From the NCBI RefSeq assembly GCF_004010195.1, contig NC_057751.1, positions 19,149,462-19,213,461 on the forward strand: a stretch of DNA of 64,000 nt. The letters run 5' to 3'. The position numbers and the translations under genes are program-made. Shown one piece after another: positions 3,501 to 61,000 of the stretch. Origin of the DNA: Chiloscyllium plagiosum (Eukaryota). The notes below the pieces were generated by a model. The model was given only the letters and a program-made list of their open reading frames with translations, was not told where the DNA came from and searched no databases. The first letter of the stretch is position 1, and each line of letters starts with the position of its first letter.

Positions 3501-6500
3501 CTTGGAGGGTTGTATGTGCTAGAGGAGATTAATGATAGCGAGGCATAAGGGTATGGTGGTATTGAAACATTTTAAAAATTGTAAAATGTAGGCATTGGTC
3601 CAAGAACCAGTAAATGTCAATGAGCACGGGGATAACTACTGAAGAACGTGACTCTCTATAATGTTTCTTTTTTATTTTCCTTCTTTTTCTCTCTCTCTGT
3701 CATGCTTTCTGGGAGTTGCTGCAATTTTAAGTTGACAGTGGAACTGGATTTAACCTTGCCTCAACTCCTGCATCTAAAACATAGGAGTGGCTTTTATTGC
3801 AGTGTCATTTATGTGTTTTCCTAAGTAGAAAGTGCAGCCATAAAGCTGTAGTGGGGATTGTAGTATCAAGGAAATAATTATGTAATCTCGTTCACAGTGT
3901 CACTTGAGAATTGACTGCTGTGGAGATTTTTCTGGTGTTTTTCAGTTCACTGCATAAGGTGCCCAAATTAACTTTTTTTTTAATCTAAGATTATGGAAAG
4001 TGTCCATGATGTACTATATTTTCTGAACTAAAAAATGCCGTTTGCTTAATGGAGAGTTTGAACGTGTGTGTCTGTTGTTGTTGCGAACATTGTTGCAATA
4101 AGGGGAAGTGTGACACATTTTATATATTTCTCATTTTATTAAACAGTTTTTCTATTAGGACATTTCGAGAGGCACTAAAAGCATTATTTATATTGTCTTT
4201 CATCTTTTGCTGTATCCTGTACATATCAAATTTTGGCTGTTTAGAATAGAACCAATTGACTCCCATTATAAAATATGTCTGTCCTTTGCAAATTTTCCTT
4301 TTGTGAATTCTTCCAAGACTGCCACATCCACAAGTGGTATGACTATACTGTACATTGGATTAAAAATGCTTGAAAGAGATGGCAGAAAGGAGTGGAGTAG
4401 TGCAGTGGGTTAGCAGGCTGCTTTTTCACTCACTGGTTTGGCTGTCAATCCAGCTGGATGGCCATAAGTGTCATGGAAGATGAGTTTGTGTAGTCTGAAT
4501 CCAGTTCCAAACTGCCTCCATTTTTAATTAACTTGGTAATCTAGATGAAACAGAGTGAATGTTGAACTCATAAGGATTCTGTGCGTTGGTTATTAATCTA
4601 ATGGTTGACCCCACAGGGAAGTATGGCCTGAAGGTGACGTTTTTGGCTCTTCTGACCTGCAACTTGAGGAGGAGTCCGAGTTGCTGAAACAAATACTGTT
4701 TGCGAAGTTACCGAGTAAGTATTTTAGCAGCTGTCGCTTTGGTGTTAAGAATTTTGGAAATACTTTTGAAGCCTCATCCAATTTTTTTCTCTGCATCCCA
4801 CAGGGCAGCCCACTGTGGAGGCTGAAGAAATTGATGACTTCCACGCTGAAGAAATAGAAGAGGAGGAAACTGAATCAGTGAGGATTACAGAAAATGAATT
4901 TAATTTTCTGGATTACCTGAAGAGGTAATACATTTCAGAAATACTTGTTTTTTTTTCTTTAAACATTCATAGAATCCCTACAGTATGGAAGCAGGCCATT
5001 CAGCTCATCAAGTCCACACCGATCCTCTGAAGAGCATCACACCTAGACCCACTCCCCTATTGTTGTAACCCTGCATTTCCCATGACTAACTCACCTAGCC
5101 TGGACACTATAGGTATAATTTAGCATGGCCAATCCACCCTAAACTGTACATCTTTGGACTGTGGAAGGAAACCAGAGCACTCAGAGGAAACCCACACGGA
5201 CACGGGAATAATGTGCAAAATTCACACAATCGCCTTAGGGTGGAATTGGACCCAGATTCCTGGCGCTGTGAGGCAGCAGTGCTAACCACTGCACCATCCC
5301 TTATTCTTGTTCTATTATGGCTCTCCCTCTTTGTTCTCTCTGTCTCTCCCTCTCTCTCTCTCTCCCAGTCCTCTCCCCTCTCTGTCTGTCTGTCTCTCTC
5401 TCTCCTCTGTCTCTCTCTCTCTCTGCACCCTACCCTGTCCTTCCTCTCTCTCTCTCTCTCTCTGCACCCCACCCCGTCCTTCCTCTCTCTCTGCCCCCTC
5501 TCCAATACTACCCCCACCCTGCCCCTCTCTCTTTCTCACCATTGCATTATCTGTTGCTTTCAGGTTTGCTAATGTTGGTGTTGTGAAACCTTACATTCTC
5601 CTTCTGAAGGACTACCGGCAGAACAGTCCTCACACGAATCACTGCATTGTCAAGATGCTTTATCGTCTAGCATATACTTTGAAAATGGATACTCTTCTTT
5701 ATCAGCTGTCAGTATTCCACCTATTCAATCAAATTCTGGAAGATCCAGCATCTAGCTCGTACCAAGTAGGTTGAATTCTTGTAGTTGTACATTCTCAACA
5801 AATTGGCGATTTGCAAAAGGACTTGCAAGCCACTGAAATGTGACCCACATTCTGTGGGTCTGGAGTCCTGTAATAGACCAGACCGAATATGCTAGATTTC
5901 CTTCCCTGATGAAGGAGTTTTGAGATTTTAACAACGATCTGGTAAATTCATGGTTGCCATTACCGATTCTAGCCTTTTGTTAACTAATTAAATCAAAAAT
6001 TGAATGTAAATTTCCCAGCTGCTGTGGTGGGATTTGAACTTGTCTCCAGAATATTAGCTCAGGCCTCTGGATTAATAGTTCAGTGACCTTACCACTATGA
6101 TACCCACACCATAACTGGGAAGTGAGCAGGACTGACACCTTCCAGGGAGGACAAGGTTGTCTGCTAGTTACTTATGTGGTCTGAGAATCTGTCTGACTTT
6201 CTTGGCCATCACAGCTAGACAATATGCATCTGACAGTTAACTTCTGTTTCTTTTTACAATAGGAGCTGGTGAAGTTCTCCAAATACGTCTTGAACCGATT
6301 CTTTACTTTAGCTGCTGAGAACAGCAAAATATTTGTGGAGCTGCTGTTCTGGAAGAACATTGCAACCATTCGAGAAATGACTGAAGGTTACAGGAAGGAC
6401 GAGCAAAGGCAAGTGCAATTGAGCATGAGAATGTGGGAGGTCTGGTTCTTCTGTGTTGTGCTAAAACAATCAATGAATCTGATATTCCAGATGCGAAAGC

Positions 6501-9500
6501 TAGTCTTGCTGCCATTTTGATAGCTTTGGCAATCTTTACTTTTACACAAACTATCTCATCTGTACAAACCACATAGGACTTTGAAATGATCGATTGTTGC
6601 TCGGTTATTTGATTGCCAAAATGGATTTGGCCACTATGGTTTTGTGCTTGCTGACCAAGTTGTGTTTTTTTTCTGTTAAAGAAGTGGATGAGGCTGAGGT
6701 TAAAGAATAGTCCATTGGCACAAACACAAAGGTGCTTTGTTTTGCAGTTATGATAGTGAATGACTTTGAATTTTTACAGTGAAGCAAACAAAAAGGCTCC
6801 AACCTGGTCGTCAGAGGAAGAGGAGGAACTTGAAACACTGTATCTAAGATTCAAAGAGGAACAAGGAGGTATGTGTTGTGTTTCAGTCATTTTTGAATAT
6901 ATCCCATACCAAGCTCGCAACTCACTTTTCATCTCCCCAGTTGTTCTATTTAAATTCCACTGTAATCGATTTTTACAGCCCAGAAGATGGCGATTTGGAC
7001 CGTCACATCTGTGTCAGCTCTTTGAAAGATCTATCCGATTAGTCCCCGCTTCCCTGCTCTTTCCCTATGTCCTTGCAATATTCCCATCGGTGGAAGGATT
7101 GAGAACCAGAGGGCACAGATTCAGTGTAATTGACAAAAGAAGCAATGGAGACATGAGGAAAATCATGTTCACCACAGCGGTTGGCTAAAATGCACTGCCA
7201 AAGAGGTTCGATCAAGATTTTGGAAAGGAAATCGGATCACCTTTTGGCAATGGAAAATTTGCAGGGATATGGGGAATAAGGGTGGGAATGGCACTTGATG
7301 CTTTGCTCCTCCAGAAGGTCAGCACAGACACAACAGAATGGTTAGCCTTCTGTGCTGTAACTATTCTGTAATTTGAAGTGGGTTTTATGATCTCGATCTT
7401 TGTTGTGTAATGTTTAATTATTCCAGAGGTAATCTTGTATCCTGATGGTTGCATGCACACATTTGGAAAGCAAAACATAGCTATTCTGTTAGAAGAAAGT
7501 GAGGACTGCAGATGCTGGAGATCAGAGCTGAAAAATGTGTTGCTGGAAAAGCGCAGCAGGTCAGTCAGCATCAAAGGAGCAGGAGAATCGACATTTTGGG
7601 CATAAGCCCTTCTTCAGGATATTCTGTTGCATTGTTATCTTTCTTTTTACAGATAAAGATGTCATCGACAGTATCATGGAATGCATTAAAGATGATACAA
7701 GGACCAGGAGGCAGATTGCTGCCAAACTGGTTCAAATGAACCTGGTGGATAGTATAAGAGATTTAAAGCGTGTCAAGTAAGTGTTTGCAGTATTGTTTGC
7801 CTATTAAAGGACCACAGGAGAAAGTGAGGACTCCAGGTGCTGGAAATCAGAGTTGAAAAATGTGGTGCTGGAAAAGCACAGCAGGTCAGGCTGCATCTGA
7901 GGAGCAGGAAAATCGACATTTCAGGCACAAGCCCTTCATCAAGAATGTGGGGGGTTACAAGGGAGCTGAGAGATAAGTAGGAGGCTGGGGCTGGGGGGAA
8001 GGTAGCTGGGAAGACAATAGGTAGATGCAGGTGGGGGATGATACTGATAGGTCAGACGGGAGGGTGGAGTGGATAGGTGGGAAGGAAGATGGACAGGTAG
8101 GACAGTTCAAAAGGGTGGTGCCGAGTTGGAGGGTTGGACCTGGGATGAAGTGGGGGAGGGTGGGAAATTGGGAAACTGGTGAAGTCGATGTTGATATCGT
8201 GTGGTTGGTGGGTCCCAAGGCGGAAGATGAGGCGTTCTTCCTCCAGTCGTCGGGTGGCTTGGATTTGGCGGTGGAGGCGGCCCAGGACTTGCATGTTGTG
8301 GCAGAGTGGGAGGGGGAGGGCCACAGGCAGCAAAATCTTGGTAGTCAAGACTTTGAAAAGTGAAACCAGGCAGTAGAGTTCAGAAAACGATCACTAGCTG
8401 AAAACGTTTGGCTCACAAGGATGGTTATTTGTTTAGATTTGCTTCTTAATTTCTTCATCATTCCCTTCAGTATGAAGTTTGATTGTTTCACAGACACAGT
8501 TCACTGAGACTTCATGGTCATGAAATAATACATGTCTTTGTATCAATAATTATTCACATACAGGGTTACTTGTCCCCATGTGATGTCGCAGACTAAGGGA
8601 AGGTTCACCAAGCTATTGTTGATCATAGCATAAAAGCTCGTTTTAAAATAGGAAAGATGGAAGCAGGAGCACACACGTGCGCCCCACCCCGCCAGCTTAA
8701 ACTTTTAATCAGCTTCTTCTACCTGTCCCTCTGCGGTATTGTGAGCAAAGCATTCTGAGCCATACTGTGGGAAACATAGCCACCTTGTTTTGAAATTAGC
8801 TTGTAACATGTTGATTTTACTGCTTTAAGGAAAGGAACTAAGATTGTGCTTTGGAGAGAGGAACAGGAGATGGAGCTTGAGACATTGTTTGTGAAGTTCA
8901 GAGGATCAGATGGTAAGTTGTAACTAACTGGAATTTATTTGCTTCTGTTGTTTTTGAAAAAAAAACTCATCATAAGATAGCCTCTGACACAGAGCAAATT
9001 ATTAAGATTCTTCTATCACCACAAGCTATAACTTACTAACTCATTGTAAAACAGGGATCACATCTTCAGTCTGCCTGCCTGTTCTGAGTTAGTTCCTTGT
9101 TATCTTTACCATTTTAAAGCTCTTCAAAACAACATTCTTATTGTGAATGAAAACTCAATGAATTGTCTATAAACCTAAAACATTGTAATTTGAATGAAAG
9201 AGGCAAAATACAATTTGATGAAATTGATCTCTTTTATCTGAAGATATCCTTGGCAATATCATGAAAAACATAACCACCAAGCGATCCAGAGCCAGGATTG
9301 TTGATAAACTGATCAGCATGGGTCTCGTTTCTGACAGAAAAGAACTCTACAAGAAGCGAAGGAAATTAACAAAAGGAGCAAATCAGGTATTCTGTTTCTC
9401 AACACTCCCAGAGTCACTGTTGATTAAAAGTGTGTTGTGGTATTACAGTGGGAATTGGGCATGCTGGTCACATAAGAAACTTAGTGAAATAAAGTGTGAT

Positions 9501-19040: not shown

Positions 19041-22000
19041 CTGCAAAGGAGAAAATTGGGCAAAGCTTTAAGCTGCAATAAAGCACTGTGTATGATACCA
19101 AATCGGTTTGTCTGTGATCTCTCTCTTGAGAAAGTTTCCTGGGAGTGTTTGATGGGGAATAGTAGAGAGGGAGCTGTACTCTGTGTATCTAACCCCATGC
19201 TGCCGCTGTCCTGGAGTATTTGGGGGAGGGGGAGCGGTGTGGAGAGGGTTTTACTTTGTATCTAACCCCCTGTCCCTGGGAGTGTTTGATGTGGGGGACA
19301 GTGTGGAGGGAGCTTTACTCTGTATCAAACCCCCTGTCCCTGGGAGTGTGTGATAGGGGGACAGTGTAGAGGGAGCTTTACTCTGTATCTAAACCCCTTG
19401 TTTGATTGGGGGGGGGGGGGGGGTGGGAGCAGACAGTATAGAGGAAGATTTACTCTGTATCTGACCCCATGCTGTCCCTGTCCTGGGAGTGTTTGAGGGG
19501 GCAGCAGTGTAGAGAGAGCTTTACTGAAAATGTGTTGCTGGAAAAGCGCAGCAGGTCAGGCAGCATCCAAGGAGCAGGAGAATCGATGTTTCGGGCATGA
19601 GCCCTTCATGCCCGAAACGTCGATTCTCCTGCTCCTTGGATGCTGCCTGACCTGCTGCGCTTTTCCAGCAACACATTTTCAGCTCTGATCTCCAGCATCT
19701 GCAGTCCTCACTTTCTCCTAGAGAGAGCTTTACTCTGTATCTAACCCCTGTGCCTGGGAGTGTTTGATGGGGGGACGGTGTAGAGTGAGCTTTACTGTGT
19801 ATCTAACCCCATGCTGTCCCTGTCCTGGGAGTGTTTGATGGGGGGACAGTGTAGAGGGAGCTTTACTCTGTATCTAACCCCATGTTGTCCCTGTCCTGGG
19901 AGTGTTTGATGGGGGACAGTGTAGAGGAAGCTTTACTCTGTACCTCACCCTGTGCTGTCCTGGGAGTGTTTGATGGGGGAAACGGTGTTGAGGGAGCTTT
20001 ACTCTGTAGCTAACCCCATGCTTTCCCTGTCCTGGGAGTGTTTGATGGGGGGGAACAGTGTAGAGGGAGCTTAACTCTGTATCTAACCCCCTGTCCCTGG
20101 GAGTGGGGACGGTGTAGAGGGAGCTTTGCTCTGTATCTAACCCGGTGCTGTCCTGGGATTGTTTGATGGGGGGGAACAGTGTAGAGGGAGCTTTACTCTG
20201 TATCTAAGCCCCTATCCCTGGGAGTGTTTGATTGGGGGGAGCAGTGTAGAGAGAGCTTTACTTTGTATCTAACCCCCTGTCCCTGGGAGTGGGGACGGTG
20301 TAGAGGGAGCTTTACTCTATAACTAACCCCCTGTCCCTGGGAGTGGGGGACGGTGTAAAGGAAGCTTTACTTTGTATCTAACCTCCTATCCCTGGGAGTG
20401 TTTGATGGGGGGACAGTGTAGAGGGAGCTTTACTCTGTATCTAACCCCCTGTCCCTGGGTGTGTGTGATGGAGGGGGAAACAGTGTAGAGGGAGCTTTAC
20501 TCTGTATCTAACCCCCTGTCCCTGGGAGTGGGGAACGGTGTAAAGGAAGCTTTACTCTGTATCTAACCCCCTATCCCTGGGAGTGTTTGATGGGGGGACA
20601 GTGTAGAGGGAGCTTTACTCTGTATCTAACCCCCTGTCCCTGGGTGTGTGTGATGGGGAAACAGTGTAGAGGGAGCTTTACTCTGTATCTAACCCCCTGT
20701 CCCTGGGTGTGTTTGATGGGGAAACAGTGTAGAGGGAGCTTTACTCTGTATCTAACCCCCTGTCCCTGGGAGTGGGGGACGGTGTAAAGGAAGCTTTATT
20801 CTGTATCTAACCCCCTGTCCCTGGGAGTATTTGATGAGGAGACAGTTTAGAGGGAGCTTTACTCTATATCTAACCCCGTGCTGTCCCTGTCTTGAATAGA
20901 TTGCTTCTCCATTCCTCAATAACAAAACATGAAGCTGAAGAACCTGACAATGATAAAAGAACAGCATTGGGTTTGAATTGATCTTCATCTGCATCAAATT
21001 GATTTGTTGTACTTACTCATCCTGTATCTCAAGGTTTATCCTCTGTTGGGTTGTGTCCAATATTGAGCGATGCAGTTTGGTAGTGAGCTCCACAAGATGG
21101 TCACTGTTTAACAGCAAGTCTCCCTTCACTCCAACAGAGGAGTTCTGGAAGGGTGAAGAAATAAAATACATTTTTTTTTTCATTTAAGTCACTTGATTTG
21201 AAAGCAAAATTCCTCTGTCAAAGCTGTACTTTTATAATTTGGAAGGTAGGGTTATTATTAATTTCTAAAAATAATCACTTTCCTGATTTCATACTTTTAA
21301 ACAACTGACTGAACACATTCTTTAAAATGCTACTGTTGCCTAAGATTTTGTTGCAAACATTCATATGGCTTTGTTTTCCTGTGCTTAACATCCCTTCTTT
21401 ATGCTGAACTTACTATGTTCAGAAAGTATTCGTGCTTCAAGTCATAGTTATTTTGAACTGTATTGCTCAGCATACAAACTGTTAATAGGATGCTGATAAT
21501 TGTGGCTGGTAAGTGTTGAACACCACTATGCAATAAAAGATCAAATCTGCATGTTTATTTTAATAGTAATACTGTTGACCTGGGCTCGGTGCATTTTATG
21601 ACTCAAATGATCTTTTATGTAACTGCTGTGCTCTTCCAGCACCACTAATCCAAAATCTTATGTAACCCTATTTAGTGTCAAGCAGCTGGATGGTCAGTAT
21701 TTTCTCAGACTGGTATCAATACAGCTGACTAGCAAAGAGTTGCCAGGGACAACTTTGTCATCAAACATCAAATTATTTCCTTGCTGCACTCCATTTGGTA
21801 CAGGTCCGATTCTAAACCAAGCAGAGAAGGGATGAGACTGTTATCTCGCACAGCCGCGTTTCAAATGGGAGCAGGGCTGAATGACATGATACGCTTATTA
21901 TTTTTCATACTGTTCACGAACCTTGGCATAATTCATTCATCGGCATTTAAGATACTGCTCACCTCCACTATATGTAGCGCAAATAGTCCGTCTTTACACT

Positions 22001-34000: not shown

Positions 34001-37000
34001 GTCTTTTAAACATTCTAATTGTACCCACACCCACCACTTCCTCAGGATGTTCATTCCACACGTGAATTCCCCCCCCCCCCGCCCCCACCCCATGTAAATA
34101 AATTGCTTCGCAGGTCTTTAAATCTCTCTCCCCTCACCCTAAAAATGTGCCCCCAGTACAGAAATCGCCCATCCTGGAGAAAAGGCAACAACCATCAAAT
34201 GTATCTAAACCCCTCATTATTTCATAAACCCTCTATCAGGTTGCCTCTCAACCCCCTACACCCCAGTGAAAAAAGTCCCAGCCTATCCAGCCTCTCCCTG
34301 TAGCTTAATTCCCAGCAACATCCTGGTAAATCTCTTCTGAACCCTTTCCAGCTTAATAATATCCTTCCTGTAACAGGGCGATGAGAACTGGACACAGTTC
34401 TCCAAAACAGGCCTCACCAACGTCCTGTAGTATGCACTTCACAGTTCTGAGGAAGCAGTTCTTACCGGTCATTCCCCTTCCAATTTGGCCACGTCTGTTT
34501 GCAAAGCATCTTGTACCGCTGTAGGCAGGGCTTGTAGGGGTGTCGATACGCATAGCCTGCCCTTCGCACCCGCACGTTCTCCATCAGACCCAGGTACCAG
34601 ACCTGCGACTGCACCAGCGTATCCACAAACTTGTTCGGGGACTTGGTGTCATTGGGTTTTATGCATCTGTGAAAGGTTAGCACAGGGGAGGGTGACAATT
34701 GGTTAAACGTTTCAAGAGAACGATGTTGAGATGATACAAGTACACTGGGCGGATACTGCTCACTGTCCTGATCTAGTCTTCAGCCCCAAGCCAACATGCC
34801 CAGCTCTTCCGAAGTGAGGTTAGTAGGTCACCCAGTTGAACGGGTACCTGAGCGGGTAATGCTCCCACCATCACTCGCTTTCTTTATTGCTGTAATTCCG
34901 TGTCTAACTTTAAGTAATGCCAGCGAGCTGAGCAGTTCTGCCAGTCTCCTCCAGGTGGGCAGAATGCTTTAAACATTCACTGGCTGCCAGTTCGAGGGGG
35001 AAACTGACTGCAACAAACCCATGACCAACGGGTCTCCCCCACCACGGCCGTGAGCTTCAGGAATATAGCATCGAATCCATACAGTGTGGAAGCAGGCCAC
35101 TCAGCCCATTGAGTCTGCCCTCTGAAGAGCATCCCACCAAGTCCTCCACCCCAACCTTACCCCAGTAACCCTGCGTTTCCCATGGCCAATCCACCCCAAC
35201 CTGCACATGGCCAGACTGTGGGAGGAAACCGGAGCACCTGGAGGAAACCCACGCAGAATATCCACGCAGACAGCCAGTCACCCGAGGGTGGAATCGAACA
35301 TGGGTCCCTAACGCTGTGAGGCAACAGCGCTAACCACTGAGCCACCGTGCCACACTTACTGCCAAATCAATTGCTCGATTTCTAACTGGACAACCACTCA
35401 ATCAAGGGACAATATGGGAAGGGTCCTACCTGATGTAGTTCGGGTTCTTCACCAGGAGATTCTTCATGAGGATCCCTACAGAGGTCTTGAACTGGGAGCC
35501 AGCGGTGGGCGGCCTCTTCAGCAATGTCTTACTTGGGTTCCCTTCAGAGAAAAGGGATTTGATGAGCTTGTGCTTGGCCTGCCACATTGCCTTGGACAGG
35601 TCACGGTACAAGAGGTCATTGTTCTTGTCTAAGAACTCCGTAACGTTGTATGTCACCTGGAAGAAGGAGCATAAAAATGAATGAGGGCGTTTTCCCCTGG
35701 CTCCTCTCTGTTGCGATTGCTCGCTGCTGTTGGGTGCAGCTTCTCAGTTGCCATTCACTCTCTCAAGGAGAAAGTAAGAACCGCAGATGTGGGCGATCAG
35801 AGTCGAAGAGTGTGGCGCTGGAAAAGTGCAGCAGGTCAGGCAGCATCCGAGAAGCAGGAGGATCCTGATGAAGGGCTTATGCCCGAAACGTTGATTCTCC
35901 TGCTCCTCGGAAGATGCCTGACCTGCTGTGCTTTTCCAGCACCACTCTCTCGACTCACTCTATAGAAGATCACCTGAGTAAGTATTGGTCCTGTGGAGAG
36001 GTTCGAAATTACACCGTATGTGTGATCCTGACTAGGGGCTCTTCATATATTGGAAATGAAACTTTAGATATCACCAGTCTGCACAGATTAGTATTATACA
36101 GAGTCAAAAACGAATTCACTGCTATCTGCTGGCTTTGAAAATCCTACCCAGAAATGTGATGCCAGTTCTAAATTTCAGTGCTGAGCTGATGCTGGTCCAC
36201 AGTAGGTAGTGTTTTGGCACAACATAGTGTGCCAACACAGAGTCCTGCCGAGTTTGGCTGTGAGTATAAACAGCTCCACACATCACAGATGGTGCACTGG
36301 AAGATGCCAGGTAGAAATCAGGCAATTTCTCTGTTCAGCAACGAACATTTTCATATCCATGTCAGAGGATTGTGGCTTCAAGACCCACTTCAGAGACTTC
36401 AAAACAAACGCCAGGCTGGCCTTTCAATGTAGGATCAAGGGAGCGGGCACTGTCGGAGGGTCAGCGCTGAGGGAGGGTCAGTGCTGAGGGAGTGGGCGCT
36501 GTGGGAGGGTCAGTGCTGAGGGAGTGGGCGCTGTGGGAGTATTACTGCATGGAGCAATGTACTCACCCTTCCTGCATAGTGCTGCACCCGGAAGCAGCTG
36601 TCTGTCAGGGTTGTGTCAGTGATGAACTTGGAATTCATTGTCTCCTTGCTCTCAAAATGCTGATGGCTAGAAAAGACCTGGTTTAATTTCTTGAGGAAAG
36701 TAAACTCAGTGACGGGACCTGGCCGCAGACATTCTTCATCCAACATCGCCAGGATGCCTTTCTTACTCTGCAAAAGAACAAGCAATATCCCAGCTCATTT
36801 GCAAGGCCAGCATTATCTTTGTGTTATTTGGTTCCTTTTCCTGACCCTAGCCTTAATTTCTAATCACACTTCCTCTCGGACCATTGGTACGTGCTTGGCT
36901 ACAGTTTTGTGAGCTCTAGATGCTTTCTTATACTTTAATGAAAAGGGAGAGTGGCATGGTGGCTCAGTGGTTAGCACTGCTGCCTTATAGCCCCAGGGAC

Positions 37001-40000
37001 CCAGGTTCGATTCTAGCCTCGGGTGACTGTCTGTCTGTGTGGAGTTTGCACATTCTCCCCCTGTCTGGGTGCTCCGGTTTCCTCCTGCAGTCTAAAGATG
37101 TGCAGGTTAGGATAGATTGGACATATTAGATTGTCTTGTAGGTGGGTTAGCCATGGGAAATATAGGATGGGTTTGGGTGAGATGGTCTTTGGAGGGTCAG
37201 TCTTCCACACTGGAGGGATTCTAGAAAGAATTCTCTATATATACAAGTGTAGTCACAGAGACACTCAATCCTGTCCTCATTTTGTGTGTCCACTTTTCAA
37301 GAAAGGTCATTGAGGGCTAGCTAAATTCAGCAGTGACCAATCCTCAATTGTACAACTTACTCCTTTACCCATCCAGATGCCTTTTAAATGCTGTAATTAT
37401 ACCAGCCTCCACCACATCCTCTGGCAGCTCATTCCATACACGTACCACCCTCTGTGTGAAAAAGTTGTCCCTTAGGTCTCTTTTATATCTTTCCCCTCTC
37501 ACCCTAAACCTATGCCCTCTAGTTCTGGATGCCCCAGGGAAAAGACTTTGTCTATTTATCTTATCCATGCCCCTCATGATTTTATAAACCTGTATAAGGT
37601 CACCCCTCAGCCTCCGACGCTCCAGGGAAAACAGCCCCAGCCTATTCAACCTCTCCCTATAGCTCAAATCCTCCAACATCCTGGTCAATCTTCTCCAAAC
37701 CCTATCATGTTTCACAAGATCCTCCCGATAGGAGGGAGACCAGAATTGTACACAATATTCCAAAAGTGGCTTCACCAATACAGCCGCAATATGACTTTCA
37801 AACCCCTATACTCAATGCACTGACCAATAAAACCAAATGCACCAACCCCTGCCTTCATCACCCTGTCTTCCTGCAACGTATGCTCACACGCAAACTCAGC
37901 CACCTTGCGTGGGAATACAAAAATAACAACTGAAGGAGTGAAAAGTTGAAAAAAAAGTACGTTTTCAATCAGGTCACAGATGATGGCATTGTCAAAGTAT
38001 TTGATCTGCGTCCATTCGATCCCCTGAAAAATAGAAGAAGAATCAAGATAGGAGCAAATTACTGCAGATGCTTGAATCTGAACATTTTATTTTTGTTTTC
38101 AGAACAGGAAGCAAGCTCAGTGCACAGTGGGTTCTGGCTGATGGTTTTGGCTCCACTGTCAAAGACTTGAGCACGTGCGAGTGGTGCAGCCAAGAGCTGC
38201 ACACACTCAGCAAGACTCAACACAGCCAGGAGCAACTATCCCAGATGAAGAGCTTGTTCGGGCTGTCTGTCACATTTACCCACCGAGCGATCAGGAGAGC
38301 TCTTCCTGTCTTTAATGAATATTCATCAACGTGTACGCCAAAGGAGGGTGGGTGGGGGGTTGCTGAGGGATAGCTTACCTCTCGTACGTACTCTTCCTGC
38401 TCCTCTTTCAATGTCAGCTCAATGAAGATCTGCTGCAGCTTCTCATTACAGTAATTTATCACAAACTGCTCAAAATTATTGTCCTAAGAGAAGACACATA
38501 TGGGCAGGTTTGAGAAAAAGTGTCCAAAGCTCATCGGAATCAGAACTTGCATTTCTATAGTACCTTTCACAACCTCAAAGCCATCTCCGCACACTGCGAG
38601 CTGGTATTAATTGTTGTCAAGTAGGGAATGCGGCAGCCAATGTGTGCACAGCAAGCTCCTGCAAACAGCAGTGTGATAATGACTGGAGCATCCGTGTCGA
38701 CTGGGGAAGAAACATTGGGCTGGGATAGCACGGTGGCTCAGTGGTTGGTGCTGCTGCCTGACAGTGCCAGGGACCCGGGTTCGATTCCAGCTTCAGGTGA
38801 CTGGCTGCATATTCTCCCCCATGTCCGCATGGGTTTCCTCCAGGTACCCTGGTTTCCTCCCACAGTCCAAAGATGCGCAGATGCTAAATTGTCCCATAGA
38901 GCCCAGGGATGTGCAGGTTAGGGTGGATTGGCCATGCTAAATTGTCCTGTAGTACCCAGGGATATGCAGGTTAGGGTGGGATTGGCTGTGCTAAATTGTC
39001 CCGTAGTGTCCGGGGATGTGCAGGTTAGGGTGGGATTGGCCGTGCTAAATTGTCCCATAGTGCCCAGGGATGTGCAGGTTATGTTGGATTGGCCGTGCTA
39101 AATTGTCCCCCTAGAGCCCAGGGATGTGCAGGTTAGGGTGGATTGGCCATGCTAAATTGTCCTGTAGTGTCCCGGGATGTGTAGGTTAGGGTGGATTGGC
39201 CATGCTAAATTGTCCTGTAGTGTCCCGGGATGTGTATGTTAGCTGTGGGAAATGCAGGGTTACAGGGATAGGGATGGGTCTGGGTGAGTTGCTCTCCGGA
39301 GGGTCAGTGTGGACTCAGTGGGCCGAATGGCCTGCTTCCACATTGTAGGGATTGTGTGATGGAACCCTGGGAATTCTTTGTCTCCTAATGGCTGTGGGAT
39401 CTTTTACATCTAATTGAAAGCTTACACCTCCAATAAGGCAGCTTCTTCTGGGAGCATCAACCTCGACATTCAAGTCCCCACAGTGAGGTTTGTTGAACCC
39501 TGAACTTTTCGGTGTGGAGGTGAAAATGCTCCCAGACCCATGAGTAAAGAAGATGCTAAAGAGAACCAAAGCCATTCCCTGAAAACTTGGGATGGGAATG
39601 AAAAGGTACAGGCAATAGCACGGCGTTAACCGTTCACACTGGCTGAGAGGTGGTTAGTGCCTGTTCCTCTCAGCACAGACAAATTCCGAAGAGAGAAAAA
39701 TCTTATGGGTCAAAATGGAATCTCAACAAAAGCAACGTCTCCAAGTTAACAGCAAAGGAACACCATTCCAATCAGAAATGAGTGGAATGTGGAGCCACCA
39801 AAAAATATCAACATGAACCTTCAACATTTTCAGGTCAATCATTCGGAGCAGACATAAAATTCACTCCAAGTATTCATATTGGGCTCACTCAAATAAATGG
39901 GGGAAAACAAATAATGGCATTTGCTTTGAATAATCTCTCCAGAAAGTGCCGATGCTCCTGGAATTCTATTCCATGCATCGCAGTTTCTGGAATGTAAATA

Positions 40001-43000: not shown

Positions 43001-46000
43001 AACCATGACTCTGTATTGCTTGCTCCCAGGTCTCTCGGTATCACTCCTTAGATTTCTTTTAAATGTTATACTTCACCTGAGCAACAGATAATGTTGTCAT
43101 CACTTTATCCCCTTTGGCTTCCACAGTGCGTGAGCACAGTGCTTGGTTGAGAATGGACTGATTGAGACCAATCAAACTGCAGATTTCACTCAGTACTGCA
43201 CAGAAAAACAAACACCAACACTTTTAAACTCAACTCTCAGAATGCAAGAAACGTGCAGACATTAGTTGACAGACCTCCCTCTGTGTCAATATATGTGCAT
43301 CTTCCCTACAAGTGATTGTCGTGGGGACATCACAGCCAGGTTTCTCCCAGCAGGCTTTGCTATTGGCCCTCAGAAGGTTCTGGGTGGGGAACAGTAAAGA
43401 CTATGTGGAAGATAAGCTTCAACAATATTGACTATGAAGGTGAGATACAGCAGTTAGATTGTGTGTTGATGCCTTGTCCTTGGTTGGGCTGCTGTAGGAT
43501 TATTCCTGTCCCTGTCCAAACAGCATGACCTGATAGTACTGACCCAAATACCACCAGATGAAGGAGCAACTCATCAACTTAGCTCCATATCCTTAGGAAT
43601 GTAGGAACAGGAATGTGGTGCCACTGTTTAAGAAGGGTGGTAAGGACAAGCCAGGCAACTATAGACCAGTGAGCCTGACGTCAGTGGTGGGCAAGTTGTT
43701 GGAGGGAATCCTGAGGGACAGGATGTACATGTATTTGGAAAGGGTAAAAACAATGACTGCAGATGCTGGAAACCAGATTCTGGATTAGTGGTGCTGGAAG
43801 AGCACAGCAGTTCCGAGGAGCAGTAGTACTGCCTGAACTGCTGTGCTCTTCCAGCACCACTAATCCAGAATGTATTTGGAAAGGCAAGGACTGATTAGGG
43901 ATAGTCAATATGGCTTTGTGGGTGGGAAATCATGTCTCACAAACTTGATTGAGTTTTTTGAAGAAGTAACAAAGAAGACTGATGAGGGCAGAGCAGTAGA
44001 TGTGATCTATATGGACTTCAGTAAGGCATTCGACAAGGTTCCCCATGGGAGACTGATTAGCAAGGTTAGATCTCATGGAATACAGGGAGAACTAGCCATT
44101 TGGATACAGAACTGGCTCAAAGGTAGAAGANNNNNNNNNNNNNNNNNNNNNNNNNNNNNNNNNNNNNNNNNNNNNNNNNNNNNNNNNNNNNNNNNNNNNN
44201 NNNNNNNNNNNNNNNNNNNNNNNNNNNNNNNNNNNNNNNNNNNNNNNNNNNNNNNNNNNNNNNNNNNNNNNNNNNNNNNNNNNNNNNNNNNNNNNNNNNN
44301 NNNNNNNNNNNNNNNNNNNNNNNNNNNNNNNNNNNNNNNNNNNNNNNNNNNNNNNNNNNNNNNNNNNNNNNNNNNNNNNNNNNNNNNNNNNNNNNNNNNN
44401 NNNNNNNNNNNNNNNNNNNNNNNNNNNNNNNNNNNNNNNNNNNNNNNNNNNNNNNNNNNNNNNNNNNNNNNNNNNNNNNNNNNNNNNNNNNNNNNNNNNN
44501 NNNNNNNNNNNNNNNNNNNNNNNNNNNNNNNNNNNNNNNNNNNNNNNNNNNNNNNNNNNNNNNNNNNNNNNNNNGGGCATGGATAGGATAAATAGACAAA
44601 GTCTTTTCCCTGGGGTTGGGGAGTCCAGAACTAGAGGGGCATAGATTTAGGGTGAGAGGGGAAAGATATAAAAGAGACCTAAGGGGCAACTTTTTCACGC
44701 AGAGGGTGGTACGTGTGTGGAATGAGCTGCCAGAGGATGTGGTAGAGGCTGGTACAATTGCAACATTTAAGAGGCATTTGGATGGGTTTATGAATAGGAA
44801 GGGTTTGGAGGGATATGGGCCGGGTACTGGCAGGTGGGACTAGATTGGGTTGGGATATCTGGGTCAGCGTGGACGGGTTGGACTGAAGGGTCTGTTTCCA
44901 TGCTGTACATCTCTATGACCCCATGACTCTATGAACAGGAGGAAGCCATGTCTGATCTGGGTCTTAGTTTTCATATTTTCAATTGAGTTCCAGCTTTAAC
45001 AACTGTTGGAGAGAGAGAGTTCCAAGTTTCCACTCCCTTTTATTTGAACAGAGGAGCAGGTGAGGTCATTCACTCCCTCAGGCCTGCTCTGCCATTCCAG
45101 ATCATTGTTAATCATGTCCCTCAACACCATCTTCCTGACTATCCCTTGATGTAATTAGTGTCTAGAAAGCTATTGATCTGCATTGAGGCTGCTCAATGAT
45201 TGAAGTTGCACAAAGCCTCTGGGTACAGAATTCCAAGAATTCACCATCCTCTCAGAGAACATATTCCTCCTCAACTCAATCCTTACTGTGAGACGGTGTC
45301 CCCTAGTTCTACACTCCTCTATGCCCAGCCTCCTTCCTGCATCTCCTCTCCCCCCTCCACCCCGTCGAGCCCTGACAATTTTGTAAATTTCATTGAGACC
45401 TCTTCCCATTCATCTAAACTCCAGAGAGTTACAGATGCATGCGCCTCGATCCCTCCTACCATCCCAGGGGTCAGTCTGGTGTCCCTCCACTGTGCTCCCC
45501 TCTGTGCAGCGTAAACCCTCCCTTAGAACTGCATGCAATATTCCAGATGCAGTCTCACCAAAGCTCTGTACAACTAAAGTAAGACATTTTTACTCTGGTA
45601 CTATAAAACCATAAGATATAGGAGCAGAAATTAGGCCATTCAGCCCATCGAGTCTGCTCCACCATTCAATCATGGCTAATAAGTTTCTCAATCCTATTGT
45701 CCTGCTTTCTCCCTATAACCCTTGTTCCCCTTGATACTCAAGAACCTATCTATCTCCATCTTAAATATACTCAGTGACCTGGCCTCTGCAGCCTTCTGTG
45801 GCAATGAATTCCATCGACTCACAACTGTCTGGCTGAAGAAGTTTCTCCTTATCTCTGTTCTAAAAGGTCTTCCCTTTACTCCAAATCTGTGCCTTCGGAC
45901 CCTCGTCTCTCCTACCAATGGAAACCTCTTCCAACATGTCAAGGCCATTCAGTATTTTGTATGTTTCAATTAGATCCCCCCCTCATCCTTCTAAATTCCA

Positions 46001-49000
46001 TTTAGTATAAACCTAGAGTCCTCAAATGTTCCTCATATGTTAAGCTTTTTCCATTCCTGGACCATTCTTGTGAACCTCCTCTGAACACACTCCATGGCCA
46101 TGACATCCTTTGAGATATGGGGCCCAAAACTGCGCACAATACTCCAACTGCTGTCTTACCAGAGCTTTATAGAGCCTCAGAAGTACATCCCTGCTTTTAT
46201 ATTAAAGTCCTCTCAAAATAAATGCCATCATTGTATTTGCCTTCCTAACTACTGACTCAACTTGATGAAAGCCAATGTACTGGCTGCATTTCCAAACTGC
46301 TTGCTGAACCTGCGTGCTAGATTTTGACTTCTGAATGTGGATACTCCAGTCTTTTTGAACACTGACACTTCCCAGTCTCTCCCTGTTTAGGGAAATACTC
46401 GACACCTCCATTTCTCCTTCCAAACAGGGGAATCTCAGATCTTGCCACATTACACCTGCCCATTTTATGTGAAGAGGTAACAAAACCAGAAGTTGCTGGA
46501 AAAGCTCAGCAGGTCTGACAGCATCTGTGGAGAGAAATCAGAGTTAACGTTTCAGGTCAGGAGACCCTTCCTCAGACCCTTTCTCTCCGCAGATGCTGCC
46601 AGACCTGCTGAGCTTTTCCAGCAACTTCTGTTTTTTTTTGTTTCTGAGTTATAGCATCTGCAGTTCTTTCAGTTTTTATTATGTGTCATGGTGCTCCCTG
46701 AATGAAGGGCTTTTGCCCGAAACGTCGATTTTCCTGCTCCTCGGATGCTGCCTGAACTGCTGTGCTTTTCCAGCACCACTCTAATCGAGACCCTGCTCCC
46801 TGAATGGCCTGGCATTAATTTGAGATTTCTGTTACTTGTTCTGGTCTCGTACCACACCAGAGAAGATAGTTTCCTTTGGTCGACCCTACTGAATCTTTTA
46901 ACGATTTTAAACACTTCAGTCAAGGGAATACAGGCAAAACCTATGAGACCTATCCTCATAATTGAGCCCATTTTAGCCTTGGGATCCTTACCTTTCGTAG
47001 CGAAGAGTGTGGTGCTGGAAAAGCACAGCAGGTCAGGCAGCATCCGAGGAGCAGGAAAGTCGATAGCCCTGATGAACGGCTTATGCTTGAAACATTGATT
47101 CTCCTGCTCCCCAGATGCTGCCTGACCTGCTGTGCTTTTCCAGCGCCACACTTTTCGACAATGATCTCCAGCATCTGCGGTCCTCACTTTCTCCTTACCT
47201 TTAGTATCGTCAATGTAGCATCGTTCCATGCCAGTCGTCTGAAATTCTGACTTCAGCGTGATGTTGCCAAGTTTAAGTACGACTGCAACAGTCTCCATAA
47301 TGGAGTCCACCTCAGCGTTACTGAATCCGATGACCTCCATGGCAGTCTGCAATACAAGCAGTCAGACATCCAATGCAGTAATTGTGGATGGTCGCTTCAT
47401 TTTAGCTCTGGAAAACAACTTGGTCAGAGCTCCACGAGTTCTCCAAATGTCACTCGGTGTAACCAGAATCAACCATAGTAATAATATCAATTTGACCTCG
47501 CTGGTTGCTAAGAATGCAGAAAGATCTTTTAAAAATTGTGCCAACTGCCAATGGAATCACAGAAATTTACAACACAGAAGGGGACCATTTGGCCTATGTG
47601 GTCCACCCTGCCCCTTCAAACAAGCATCTTCCCCAGTGCTACTCTCCTGCTTTTACCCCATGTCCTTGCACCCCATTTCTATCCAAATAACCATCCAATG
47701 CCCCTCTTGAGTGCCTCAATGGAACCAGCTTCCATCACATTTCCAGGCAGTACATTACTAACTCCTCACTGGGTGAGTTTGCACATCACTTTAAATCTAT
47801 GTCATCTTGTCTTGTTCTCTTCACAAGTGGGAACAACTTCTTCCTATCTACTCTGTGCCAGAGATAGGTGAAAATCTTCCCATGGTTCAATGCAGCAACT
47901 CTAATTCAGGAGATAATTATGAACTTTATGTTCGGGATTACACAATGCATCAGACCACAAATGTTTATTGATTTATTTTATTGTTGAAAAGTTACATGCA
48001 CATATGTGTCCAGTGTAATGAAATCATCGCATTTTAAGTGTACAACCTTGTGTATACTTTAGCTTGCGTTTGCCCATCTACTTGAAGGTCCCATTTTACA
48101 ATTGAGAAGGATATTCACATAAAAGCAGAAAGAGCTCGCAATTAAATTGCACCTTTTACATCGTCAGGATGTTCCAAAGCATTTTGCGGCCAATTAAGTA
48201 ATTTTTAAGTGCAGGTTGTAGTTACGTATGGCAAAAGCAGCAATCAACTTGCGCACAACAAGGTATCAGAAACAGCAAACAACAATAAAATGTTCTGCTT
48301 TCAAGATGTCAGTTGAGGGATACCTATCTTCCAGATCACTGGAATTTCTCTGCTTCCAATAGAGGCCGTGGGATCCTCTATCCCCACCTGAAGGGGCACT
48401 CAGGGCGTCAATTGGAAGACAGCACCTCGAACAGAGCAGTGCTCCGATTTTGTCAGCTGGCAGTGTCAGCTGAGATTGTCTGCTCAGGTTTCTACAATGT
48501 CACTTGAACCAACAACCTTCTGACCAGAAATGAGGGTGCGAACCACTGAACCGTGCCCTGACACTCGATTATTAAGTTAATTTATCTTAAAGAGTACATT
48601 TTGATTGTATGACATTTGTGAGGTTAAGTGTATTGAATACGTTCAGGTTTCTCAGTATGCCTATGTTTGCGCTGGCTCAAGCAGTTCATGCAACTGGTTT
48701 GTCTTTGGTCTCTTTAAAGCACTAATTTATGTTCCTATAGAAAGGCAAGATGCAAGTTCATGCCCTCAGAGCTCCATGCTGTTATGATGCCACCCTGCTC
48801 TGCATATATTAGGTACAAAATACACACGACCAGGAGCAGCAGTAGACCATTTGGCCCTCTTCAGCGTGCTATACCATTCAATAAGATCTGATTACACTTC
48901 ACCCCCACATTCCTGCCTATTCCCTGGTAACCTTCCCCTTCCCTCCCCTGTCCCGTTCTTACCAATAATCTATCCATCTGTATCTTTAAAATATTCAAGG

Positions 49001-58000: not shown

Positions 58001-61000
58001 TCATGTGATACTGATCAACACACCAATTAACCTAGCCTAATTCATTTTGTATTACCTTGGGATCCACCCTATCCTTGGTTTGGTATAAGCTATGAATACG
58101 CATTGGATCCTTGGGACGCCAAGGGCTTGAAATCATTCCTAAAGTAGTATGCCCAGAATTGTACACAGTACTCCTGCTGAATTCCAAACCCAAAAAAAAT
58201 CACGAAGGTTAACATAACTATCTCTCCATTGCACTCAATTGTGTTATTAGTACATATCCCAAGTTGTTTCATTTAACAAGAATCAGAGTAAAAATTGTCT
58301 AAATCCCAATATTTTCTATCCTTCAAAATAAAACAAAAATGTATAAATCCACCACTTTGAAAAAAAAACCCATGACATTCCATGTGATGATTGGGTGGAC
58401 AAAAGACTTTCCTTTAACTCTGACACTGTAAACAGTATTCTTCCAAAATGAGGGGGCACAATCACAAGGGTCACGAAATACAAAAGAACTACTGTACCCA
58501 TGAGTGACAATGCCTGGCACCCACCTATCCCTATGGTTATGTGCATGTTCCTTCTGTACATCTCTATGACTCTATGACTCTGACCTCACTCAGCATTTAT
58601 AGAGTCGTAGAGTCATAGAGATGTGCAGCATGGAAACAGACCCTTTGGTCCAACCCGTCCATGCCGACCAGATATCCCAACCCAATCTAGTCCCACCTGC
58701 CAGCACCTGGTTCATATTCCTCCAAACCCTTCCTATAAGAAAAAACAATAACTGCAGATGCTGGAAACCAGAGTCTACGTTAGAGTGGTGCTGGAAAAGC
58801 ACAGCAGTTCAGGCAGCATCTGAGGAGCAGTAAAATCAGTCTATTCCTGATGAAGGGCTTTTGCCTGAAACGTCGATTTTCCTGCTCCTCGAATGCTGCC
58901 TGAACTGCTGTGCTTTTCCAGCACCACTCTAATCTAGACCCTTCCTATTCATAGACCCATCCAAATGCCTTTTAAAGGTTGCAATTGTATCTGCCTCCAC
59001 CACATCCTCTGGCAGCTCATTCCATACACGTACCACCCTCTGTGTGAAAACGTTCCCCCCTCACCCTTAACCTATGCCCTCTCGTTCTGGACTCCCCGAC
59101 CCCAGGGAAAAGACTTTGCCTATTTACCCTATCGATGCCCCACATAATTTTGTAAACGAAAACGTTCCCCCCTCACCTTAACCTATGCCCTCTAGTTCTG
59201 GACTCCCCAACCCCAGGGAAAAGACTTTGCCTATTTACCCTATCGATGCCCCACATAATTTTGTAAACCTGTATAAGGTTACTCCTCAGCCTCCAACGCT
59301 CCAGGGAAAACAGCCCCAGCCTGTTCATGTAGCTCAATTCCTCCAACCCTGGCAACATCCTTGTAAATCTTTTCTGAACCCTTTCAAGTTTCACAACATC
59401 TACCTGCTGTTTCCTATCCTTCACCTTGTTAAACCTTACATGCAGAATCTTGGCTCAAGCTTTTTGGATGACACACTTGGCAGGGGGGGGGGTAGGGCAA
59501 TAATTTAAAAAAATGATAATTGAGGTCAGTTCGGCAGAATCACCCTCAATTGAAGCCTCTTGGCAATTATTCACAAGGTTATTTTCAAGACCATTAATTT
59601 GCTTTCTGTTTTCTTGGTAATTTAAACGCATTCATGGTTAGCAATTGCTTGCCCAAAATTTGTAATCTGACAACCGATCCCATATCGCCCAAAAAATAGC
59701 AGCAGGAATGTGAGCGTTCTATGTAAACAGAGAGGTTTACTGTCCAGTACGCCCACTGGTCGCTGCTGCCTCGGATTCTGGGCCTGCTCTTCTCCAGAGT
59801 AGGATCATAACCCACTGCCACAGCAGAGCAAGGCTAGATTCCTGGAACAGTAGCCATCCAGGAGTTCCTTTACAGTTTGGCTCACGATTCTCAGTCCATA
59901 TATGGAAGGTTTTTCGCCCTTGCTCCTGTGTGGCTGGCATGATTTTGCTGCCAAATTTCAAGTCCCTGTTCTCTGCAAATCACTGATCAGATATCTATTT
60001 GCCACAACTTGCTGCTGTTACCTTCCTGCCAGCTGTTTACTGCTGGCCATTTGCTGACTGTTTGCGTCTGATCATTTGTTATTGGCTGTTTACTGCTGGC
60101 CATTTGTTGACTGTTTGCGTCTGATCATTTGTTATTGGCTGTTTACTGCTGGCCATTTGCTGACTGTTTGCGTCTGATCATTTGTTATTGGCTGTTCGCT
60201 GCTGGCCATTTGCTGACTGTTTACGTCTGATCATTCGTTATTGGCTGTTCGCTGCTGGATTAGTGGTGCTGGAAGAGCACAGCAGTTCAGGTAGCATCCG
60301 AGGAGCAGTGCTGCTGGCCTTTTGCTGACCATTTGCTGCTGACTGTTTGCTGTAACCTGGTTACTAGTGACCATCTGCCAACTGAACTGCTTGGTGTTTA
60401 CCTTTGCCAGCTGATTCCTCTATAGACTCTCCATGCTGTTTGTTTCCTGTTACTAGCTGTTTGCTGTCAGCTAACTGGACTAGACCTTGCTTCTGCTTTC
60501 TGTTGCTGGTTCCCTCAGGTCTCTGTTGCTGTGATCTCCTCATCTCGTGCGTGAGGACTGTAAATATATTATTGAAATGAAAATATGCTTTTTTTTTAAA
60601 TGATTGCAGTCCGTGGTCCTTGGGGCATTTTCCTGGTTTTGTTTTTTGGCATCACAAACAAGCCTATTAAAGACCATGAACATCACCTAAAAAAAGCTGT
60701 GCATTTGAAACTGTACAACACATAGGGTAGCATCTGGAATATGAACACAAAACAGCAGTAAAAAATACCAGGAATCCATGTCTTGAAAACAGAATTCAAC
60801 TTAATCTCAGAGAAACAGCAATTCTCATTATTATCAAAGAGATATTTCCTCAAAATATACCTCCTTATCATCTTTGACCTGGTATTGATGGAAGACCTGT
60901 GGGTGTATGCTGATTTCAATTGGATTTGTCAAGATTTTGGGCATTGGCTCTCAAACTGATAGGTTGTGCCAGTAAGGTAGGAACAGATGCACCATTGAGA

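Follow-up and report, generated by a model that had tools for sequence, protein, structure and literature searches.

A head-to-head insertion of Penelope-like pseudo-LTR ends bearing a minimal hammerhead motif in a myosin-Ib-like gene intron of Chiloscyllium plagiosum

A minimal hammerhead motif in an inverted intronic insertion

The window analysed here is a 64,000-nucleotide stretch of the 3.56 Gb genome of Chiloscyllium plagiosum. On its minus strand lies a myosin-Ib-like gene, in one intron of which, 109 bases from the acceptor, begins an inverted insertion of 191 bp with a hammerhead ribozyme motif on the plus strand. The exons flanking the intron on the minus strand encode a myosin motor (Pfam Myosin_head), nearest to myosin Ib among solved structures (E 5e-32), so that the ribozyme strand is antisense to the gene, as an earlier note on this DNA had stated. 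The features, with element positions numbered from C3 = 0, are as follows.

35657-36566, minus strand: host intron of the myosin-Ib-like gene (GT at 36566-36565, AG at 35658-35657)
35755-35761, plus strand: left copy of the TSD, TCACTCT, 7 exact bases
35766-35956, both orientations: whole insertion, 191 bp, a head-to-head inverted pair of 3′ pseudo-LTR ends from a Penelope-like element (PLE) typed as Neptune by its linker motif
35766-35864, minus strand: left arm, running from element position +28, just after the cut site, to about +124, with a tail of about 35 nt
35853-35864, plus strand: stem I 5′ strand, 12 bp contiguous, the stem going on with mismatches to about 35800
35863-35864, no strand: inversion joint, shared TC (ATC with 35862), the native stem I pairs serving as microhomology (from the sequence, the arm overlap and the native ATTC-CTGATGA)
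35863-35956, plus strand: right arm, element position -2 to +91, tail-less
35865-35872, plus strand: core C3-U4-G5-A6-U7-G8-A9 and, from the sequence, an extra base between 9 and 10.1 that is typical of PLE minimal hammerheads (PMC4209133)
35873-35884, plus strand: stem II, GGGC-UUAU-GCCC, with G10.1-C11.1 retained (pairing probability 1.00 in the fold)
35885-35892, plus strand: G12-A13-A14-A15.1, palindromic ACGU (35888-35891) and H17 = U at 35892, from the sequence and family comparison
35893-35904, plus strand: stem I 3′ strand, from the sequence and fold
35955-35961, plus strand: right copy of the TSD, TCACTCT, 7 exact bases

The TSD may originally have been about 11 bases long, the four bases beyond the exact 7 having since diverged.

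The hammerhead motif at 35853-35904 is real. Its anatomy had been read correctly in the earlier note: a 12-bp stem I pairs 35853-35864 with 35893-35904 on the plus strand, with a single G-U (35861 G with 35896 U), and encloses CUGAUGA (35865-35871), an extra A (35872), stem II (GGGC, 35873-35876, with GCCC, 35881-35884, around a UUAU loop), GAAA (35885-35888), CG (35889-35890) and UU (35891-35892), the predicted cut falling after 35892. For the 52-mer the folding energy is -28.4 kcal/mol (z = -6.9), a stability that none of 200 shuffles matched; in its minimum-energy fold, a point not made in the note, the core bases G5-A6-U7-G8 (GAUG) are paired with CGUU, also of the core. Beyond the 12 bp the arms continue as 35807-35864 and 35893-35950, 58 nt that are 86% complementary. 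A strict minimal-hammerhead descriptor found 51 motifs in a 1.418 Mb non-N genomic sample and none in each of 10 shuffles, thus the motif is not a chance occurrence. Rfam gave no hammerhead match at gathering score in the window and none at E ≤ 10 in 35600-36100; its models evidently miss the minimal form, so this negative says little.

The motif belongs with the minimal type I hammerheads of PLE pseudo-LTRs, in which a palindromic ACGU replaces helix III (Cervera and De la Pena 2014, PMC4209133), the class to which it had originally been assigned. It shares with them the core (CUGANGA, GAAA and UH, here with H17 = U), the unpaired base between 9 and 10.1, G10.1-C11.1, a helix II, and a palindromic 15.2-16.2 segment with neither a loop 3 nor a stable helix III (ACGU at 35888-35891). 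The short helix I of the class (2-5 bp) is seen in the native form of the family, with 0-4 contiguous pairs in 50 of the 51 strict cores, whereas the copy at 35853-35904 has a stem made by inversion instead. Palindromic ACGU is present in 33 of the 51 and C17 in 49; at 35892 the family C has become U by a CpG transition, turning GUC into GUU.

The Penelope-like family and its abundance

The proposed Penelope-like origin held up: longer copies of the family run upstream into a GIY-YIG nuclease and a reverse transcriptase (RT). The upstream order in native sequence of the same subfamily is a pyrimidine-rich 3′ region, the GIY-YIG domain, a CX4CxxC linker and RT motifs. Five element fragments were scanned with Pfam; GIY-YIG (PF01541) was found in one (E 6e-5, 23.7 bits against a cut-off of 22.6), RVT_1 in one at E 0.001, below the cut-off, and three gave no hit. 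RT motifs and DKG were found by eye, the DKG in a related young subfamily in which a tandem pLTR-ORF junction is also present (L214 and L220-L249); a full-length tandem was looked for at C13 and not found. Several copies carry a CHRRKCKTC-like linker motif of the CX2-5CxxC form, which is common to Neptune and Nematis (PMC8557442). The element is classed as an endonuclease-bearing PLE and, by this RT-nuclease linker motif, as probably of Neptune type. The truncated copy at 35766-35956 lacks both RT and GIY-YIG, and displays the insertion features of endonuclease-bearing PLEs, namely a pLTR with an optional 30-40 bp tail, an inverted adjacent copy and a TSD.

When the intact core with GUC was searched for as an exact pattern of 30 places, the genome gave 56,022 matches (reversed control, 0), compared with 4,000-9,000 motifs in coelacanth and Xenopus (PMC4209133). 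Unbiased sampling of seven chromosomes, 1.418 Mb without Ns, yielded 285 family segments, comprising 173 single copies and 56 head-to-head pairs; the single copies include a few missed pairs and distant subfamilies, and the pattern was unchanged when the set was limited to close copies. Head-to-head pairs thus account for 56 of 229 insertions, and the sampled density, if it holds, extrapolates to about 570,000 insertions genome-wide. Several related inserts lie within the window itself.

The stem I joint and its recurrence

Native copies have ATTC before the ribozyme and GATT after it, which gives the pairs C-G, U-A, U-U and A-U; native stem I is therefore mostly two contiguous pairs, a U-U mismatch and one further pair. 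Among the 51 strict cores, 33 have two contiguous pairs, two have four, and only the copy at 35853 has 12. The earlier figure of roughly 4 bp for stem I in other copies is thus right if the mismatch is counted and too high for contiguous pairs. The accompanying claim that the inversion produced the long stem was borne out, and the stem in fact extends to about 59 bp, because of the position at which the two arms are joined.

An exact 25-mer across this joint occurs 133 times in the genome, the copy at 35863 not being among them (one substitution); when the joint was shifted by two bases, without microhomology, there were 5 matches, and the reversed pattern gave none. The same joint with an intact (exact) core is found at 90 other loci, about 0.16% of exact cores. 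Twenty of these were sampled for flanks, arms and folding. Their flanks show no relationship, a single 21-nt match being found over all pairwise comparisons; arms are 34-80 bp long in 16 of 20, at least 12 contiguous pairs are present in 12 and GUC is kept in 19. The predicted open-core fold reaches 0.71-0.85 in about 14-15 of the 20, and 16 exceed the 0.21 of the copy at 35853. Other overlaps recur too: of 706 matches with other sense starts, the first 100 were counted by eye and included 16 joints with a TTC overlap. The stem I joint is one of several favoured microhomology joints, with others as common. We found no printed account of the stem I joint, of the 5′ pile-up described below or of shark-retroelement hammerheads in the literature searched, most subscription papers and some supplements lying outside its coverage.

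Formation of the inverted insertion

The 3′ ends of family copies fall into two groups about 35 bases apart, which differ by the tail. The tail is present in about half of the single copies (68/128), and lies on exactly one arm in 51 of the 56 pairs (binomial p 1e-10 against 0.5). The mechanism that this pattern suggests, and that fits best, is a coordinated pair of primings, in which each target strand and each start site is used once and the products are joined through microhomology. The element nuclease would nick both target strands, and each 3′ end would prime RT at one of two internal start sites, one at the tail end (about +124) and the other at the tail start (about +91). One cDNA would pass through the uncut ribozyme to about -2, and the two cDNAs would then join via two or three complementary bases, which are both halves of native stem I; with the other arm stopping at +28, the 3′ strand of stem I would gain a long partner. 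Such a route resembles the twin priming reportedly used by L1, here with both cDNAs spanning the same region. It also agrees with the behaviour in vitro of PAc, a Poseidon element of Anolis, for which both strands are cut and extended, two RT start sites bound the tail, a dimer is predicted and RNA that has not been processed is the main substrate (Frangieh et al. 2024, PMC11167929). The two 3′ end classes about 35 bases apart match the two PAc start sites, and inserts from uncut RNA and the use of both strands as primers are common to both systems. PAc nevertheless belongs to a different clade from the element described here, with its Neptune-type linker, and the ATG in the ribozyme is here not conserved across subfamilies; in the single tandem copy analysed, it does not share the reading frame of the main ORF.

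An alternative is that a single cDNA copied the ribozyme, paired its own 3′ end through the mirror image of stem I and primed itself, a route proposed for palindromic PLE joints (PMC3846280). In favour of self-priming, the joint at 35863-35864 lies exactly in the register of stem I, the family includes perfectly palindromic joints and overlaps of 1-3 bases at the joint are frequent (15/56). However, an arm formed by fold-back cannot hold sequence that is missing from the arm it copied, and at 35766 the tail is present on the fold-back arm only, a position that does not fit simple self-priming, which would leave the tail on the loop-bearing first strand. The tail is likewise on that arm in 25 of the 38 asymmetric pairs, being on the loop-bearing arm in the other 13, and in 8 of the 20 sampled stem I loci, so that the first strand would have to have lost its tail by trimming afterwards. 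We consider this route unlikely beside the two coordinated primings.

A similarly small chance attaches to the proposal that the left arm is a run-off cDNA of ribozyme-cut RNA, and the joint a fossil of cleavage in vivo. The left arm does stop at +28, where the 3′ cleavage product would begin, and 4 of 112 pair arms end exactly there, the left arm at 35864 included, with almost none at neighbouring positions. Microhomology predicts the same end point, though, and by eye the +28 ends (about 10 in the first 100 of 706 joints) are no commoner than other overlaps. Single copies speak against run-off: none of 173 starts at +28 and two start at +25 to +31, against 59 at -9 to +3. RNA-seq reads ending at the cut site were likewise not found in Anolis (PMC11167929).

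The 5′ ends of all segments show the same concentration, 108 of 285 falling at -9 to +3, a density of 8.3 per base compared with 0.24 at -50 to -10 and 1.0 around the cut site. This pile-up just before the ribozyme, together with the lack of single copies starting at +28, indicates that most inserts were copied from uncut RNA. A fixed cDNA length was rejected as its cause, since the stopping point is alike in copies with a tail (57) and without one (51), and since of 30 copies chosen by ORF start, three of them masked or rearranged, 10 of the 27 informative ones also begin at -7 to 0. The pile-up may instead mark a transcription start. A TCATTC at -6 to -1, which we take to be Inr-like, is accompanied in 42 of 58 native copies, which are related and hence not independent, by a TTAT(C/T)T box lying 29-33 bases upstream. 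A cap signature (G) for a start at -4 was not found, the base before ATTC in 39 truncated copies being C in 23, A in 8, T in 6 and G in 2. A TSD of at least 9 bases defines the 5′ end in 15 of the 69 single copies near the peak, and among these the ends scatter from -12 to +6 and no single sharp start is apparent. A start so placed would differ from the Drosophila arrangement, in which the promoter is internal and TATA-less and an intron precedes the ribozyme (PMC2377424; PMC4209133).

Folding and the prospects for cleavage

The earlier note had proposed that the long stem I may give a better-folding ribozyme, and secondary folding is indeed predicted to be better. With ViennaRNA the open-core fold with stems I and II has a probability of 0.21 at 35853 and of 0.00009, 0.0005 and 0.002 in three native copies, in which the core is often predicted to be captured by an upstream hairpin. 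A better ribozyme does not follow, because helix III and not stem I appears to be limiting: PMC4209133 describes single minimal motifs as inactive, with low activity only in dimers or with an added helix III, and amphibian ribozymes with a weak helix III act alike (PMC7229834; summarised in the review PMC6765202). A special status of the locus likewise found no support: the same joint is present with an exact core at the 90 loci described above, most of the sampled ones being predicted to fold better. The plus-strand RNA would clamp stems I and II as a hairpin of about 59 bp, and the long stem is predicted to fix both stems while supplying no helix III, which would leave the monomer inactive or very slow.

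Dimerisation would be the remaining route to activity. By geometry, A15.1 pairs with U16.1 of the other molecule, so that each stem I in a double hammerhead is intermolecular and 59 pairs must be exchanged in each molecule. Even with no cost for concentration counted, the calculated energy of the double-hammerhead dimer exceeds that of two hairpins by 2.9 kcal/mol, and its formation would be kinetically blocked, since both long stems must swap strands. Two copies annealed by heating could form a duplex that might cleave in vitro; this route, within reach of annealing at high concentration, is implausible on these calculations for a single-copy antisense RNA.

These results bear on a functional reading, according to which an improved ribozyme arose through the inversion and cleaves an antisense transcript here. 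The intact core and stem II, the improved open-core prediction, a stem I of more than four pairs in only one of the 51 strict cores of the unbiased sample, and the inclusion of GUU among cleavable triplets (PMC3138052) are in its favour. Against these, helix III is still ACGU only and a single such motif was inactive (PMC4209133), no loop 1 for tertiary contact is present in the copy at 35853, and the dimer would require the exchange of pairs described above, with the nearest same-strand strict core 46 kb off. C17 has decayed to U, the fastest triplets being GUC and GUA (PMC3138052); the copy begins at -2, without the upstream sequence that may be the element promoter; and the cut products would remain paired through the long stem. 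Adding that 90 equal or better loci exist and that the core shows no excess conservation, we regard this reading as highly improbable.

Least probable of all is an effect of the stem of about 60 bp on the host strand, 109 bases upstream of the 3′ splice site, through splicing, editing or dicing: the minus strand does fold as a mirror hairpin, and the only weak Rfam hits, far below threshold, were hairpins resembling miRNA precursors, but the arms differ at 8 of 64 aligned positions without compensation and the sample of 1.418 Mb holds 56 such hairpins, about one in every 25 kb. The host pre-mRNA would bear this mirror hairpin only and no ribozyme.

Decay of the insertion

Compared with the family majority the insertion carries 15 changes in 190 bases, none of them compensatory: 11 in the 98 aligned bases of the left arm and 4 in the 92 of the right. 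The core has changed at 1 of 28 positions compared with 14 of 162 outside it (Fisher p 0.70), and its freedom from inactivating changes is within chance (p 0.29). A raw single-cell run (X17) yielded 425 reads, 423 of them partial fits; every one fell on repeats, unique exon and intron sequence receiving none, and a second run (X18) yielded no reads, so that these data do not bear on transcription of either strand. A contig without the intron 35657-36566 was seen in run X13. We consider it very probable that the insertion is the decayed product of two 3′ pseudo-LTR ends placed head to head and joined at stem I, and likely an inert passenger of the intron. On sequence comparison it ranks among the poorer examples of a recurrent accident, most loci with the same joint appearing better preserved.

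Relation to known elements and significance

The family resembles the PLE minimal hammerheads of PMC4209133 also in its short native helix I, its pLTR site downstream of the GIY-YIG ORF, its mostly solo truncated copies and its opposite-strand pairs; it differs in a helix II of 4 bp, compared with 7-8 bp in the Schistosoma minimal hammerhead, and, in the copy at 35853, in the inversion-made helix I of about 59 bp. The insertion itself is like those of other endonuclease-bearing PLEs in its head-to-head ends, 30-40 bp tail on one arm, short TSD and joint overlap (Arkhipova et al. 2013, PMC3846280; Craig et al. 2021, PMC8557442), and unlike them in that both arms are only about 95 bases long and the ribozyme stem I serves as the joint microhomology. 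With the non-LTR retrozymes (PMC7229834; bioRxiv 10.64898/2026.07.22.740005) it has in common a short non-coding unit of PLE pLTR origin that carries a type I hammerhead. It was rejected as a member of that group: direct tandem units with complete hammerheads are absent, the hammerhead is minimal and not canonical, and a single core in an inverted pair, in contrast to a direct tandem array, cannot release a monomer circle. The locus itself is of little weight, being a worn instance of a motif and an insertion architecture that are both already described.

A wider reading of the several hundred thousand copies, which we hold to be possible but somewhat doubtful, is that they record the PLE cycle in vivo: RNA would start a few bases before the ribozyme, which would put the hammerhead at its extreme 5′ end, and be copied uncut by two coordinated RTs, one for each start site and each target strand, and the joinings at stem I, 90 or more, would give 'clamped' hammerheads that could cleave as annealed palindromic duplexes without protein, a few of them perhaps being active in host antisense RNA. 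The role of the hammerhead in PLEs and the origin of inverted one-tailed insertions are both described as open questions (PMC8557442, PMC11167929). The tail counts (one arm only in 51/56 pairs, not tied to the loop-bearing arm) and the 5′ ends (108/285 within a 13-base pile-up, with 0/173 single copies at the cut site) bear on both. The value of the insertion at 35766 is as a pointer to this family, in which the 90 stem-I-clamped loci are natural constructs for asking whether stem I or helix III limits these ribozymes.

Family copies and other repeats in the window

Further copies of the Neptune-type Penelope-like family were found in the window, several of them in the head-to-head arrangement, and copies of a more distant subfamily lie near 46500 and 50624. 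Other repeats lie in and near the host intron of the myosin-Ib-like gene, 35657-36566 (-).

Family copies and neighbouring repeats (window positions)
19532-19725: head-to-head insert, young, with 1 mismatch in 75 and a TSD of 14-16 bases
47001-47196 and 58739-58930: head-to-head inserts, each with one arm ending at +28, the first base after the cut site, like the ribozyme-bearing insert, but with filler bases
7491-7620, 7816-7944, 46495-46788, 60262-60308 and 43787-43861: single or nested copies
35074-35356, 36948-37221 and 38728-39353: SINE-like repeats, tRNA-headed and found in both orientations; the third contains an internal tandem of 53-54 bp
36438-36556: short G-rich tandem of 15-17 bp units; on the donor side of the insertion-bearing intron it stops approximately 10 bases away

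The SINE-like repeats could pair with one another in the pre-mRNA. At the same gene, a contig from sequencing run X13 (record 9) fuses window positions 35339-35652 to 36563-36858; it lacks exactly the insertion-bearing intron and retains portions of both adjacent introns. Read depth was 19.2 for this contig versus 6.2 for an intron contig, and the exon is present in a single copy in the assembly. The intron-less contig has two readings: RNA that was spliced in part, or an allele from which this intron was precisely lost.

Native copies and short tandem units

Native copies carry the short inverted repeat TCA(T)...(A)TGA at family positions -10 to +9, where it overlaps the 5′ core (e.g. L067:4745-4765). 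Several inversion joints fall at this repeat, and in two of three native folds it was predicted to sequester CUGA. Adjoining the Neptune-type copy at locus L181 we noted a different, second Penelope-like RT frame (2028-2999, -) with the motifs GTKFAPQYAN and YTRYIDDIFF.

In some copies, the 5′ ORF region that follows the optional tail is fused directly to positions -9 to -7 of the next pseudo-LTR (pLTR).

Copies with the ORF-region/pLTR fusion
Genome sample piece G000 C10: 37284
Genome sample piece G000 C1: 67371 and 117176
Fetched loci: L221-L248

These fusions produce short tandem units of approximately 220-500 bases that carry a second core, and the next core was 221-505 bases away at 11 of 30 loci. 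Such units look like retrozyme-type deletion derivatives.
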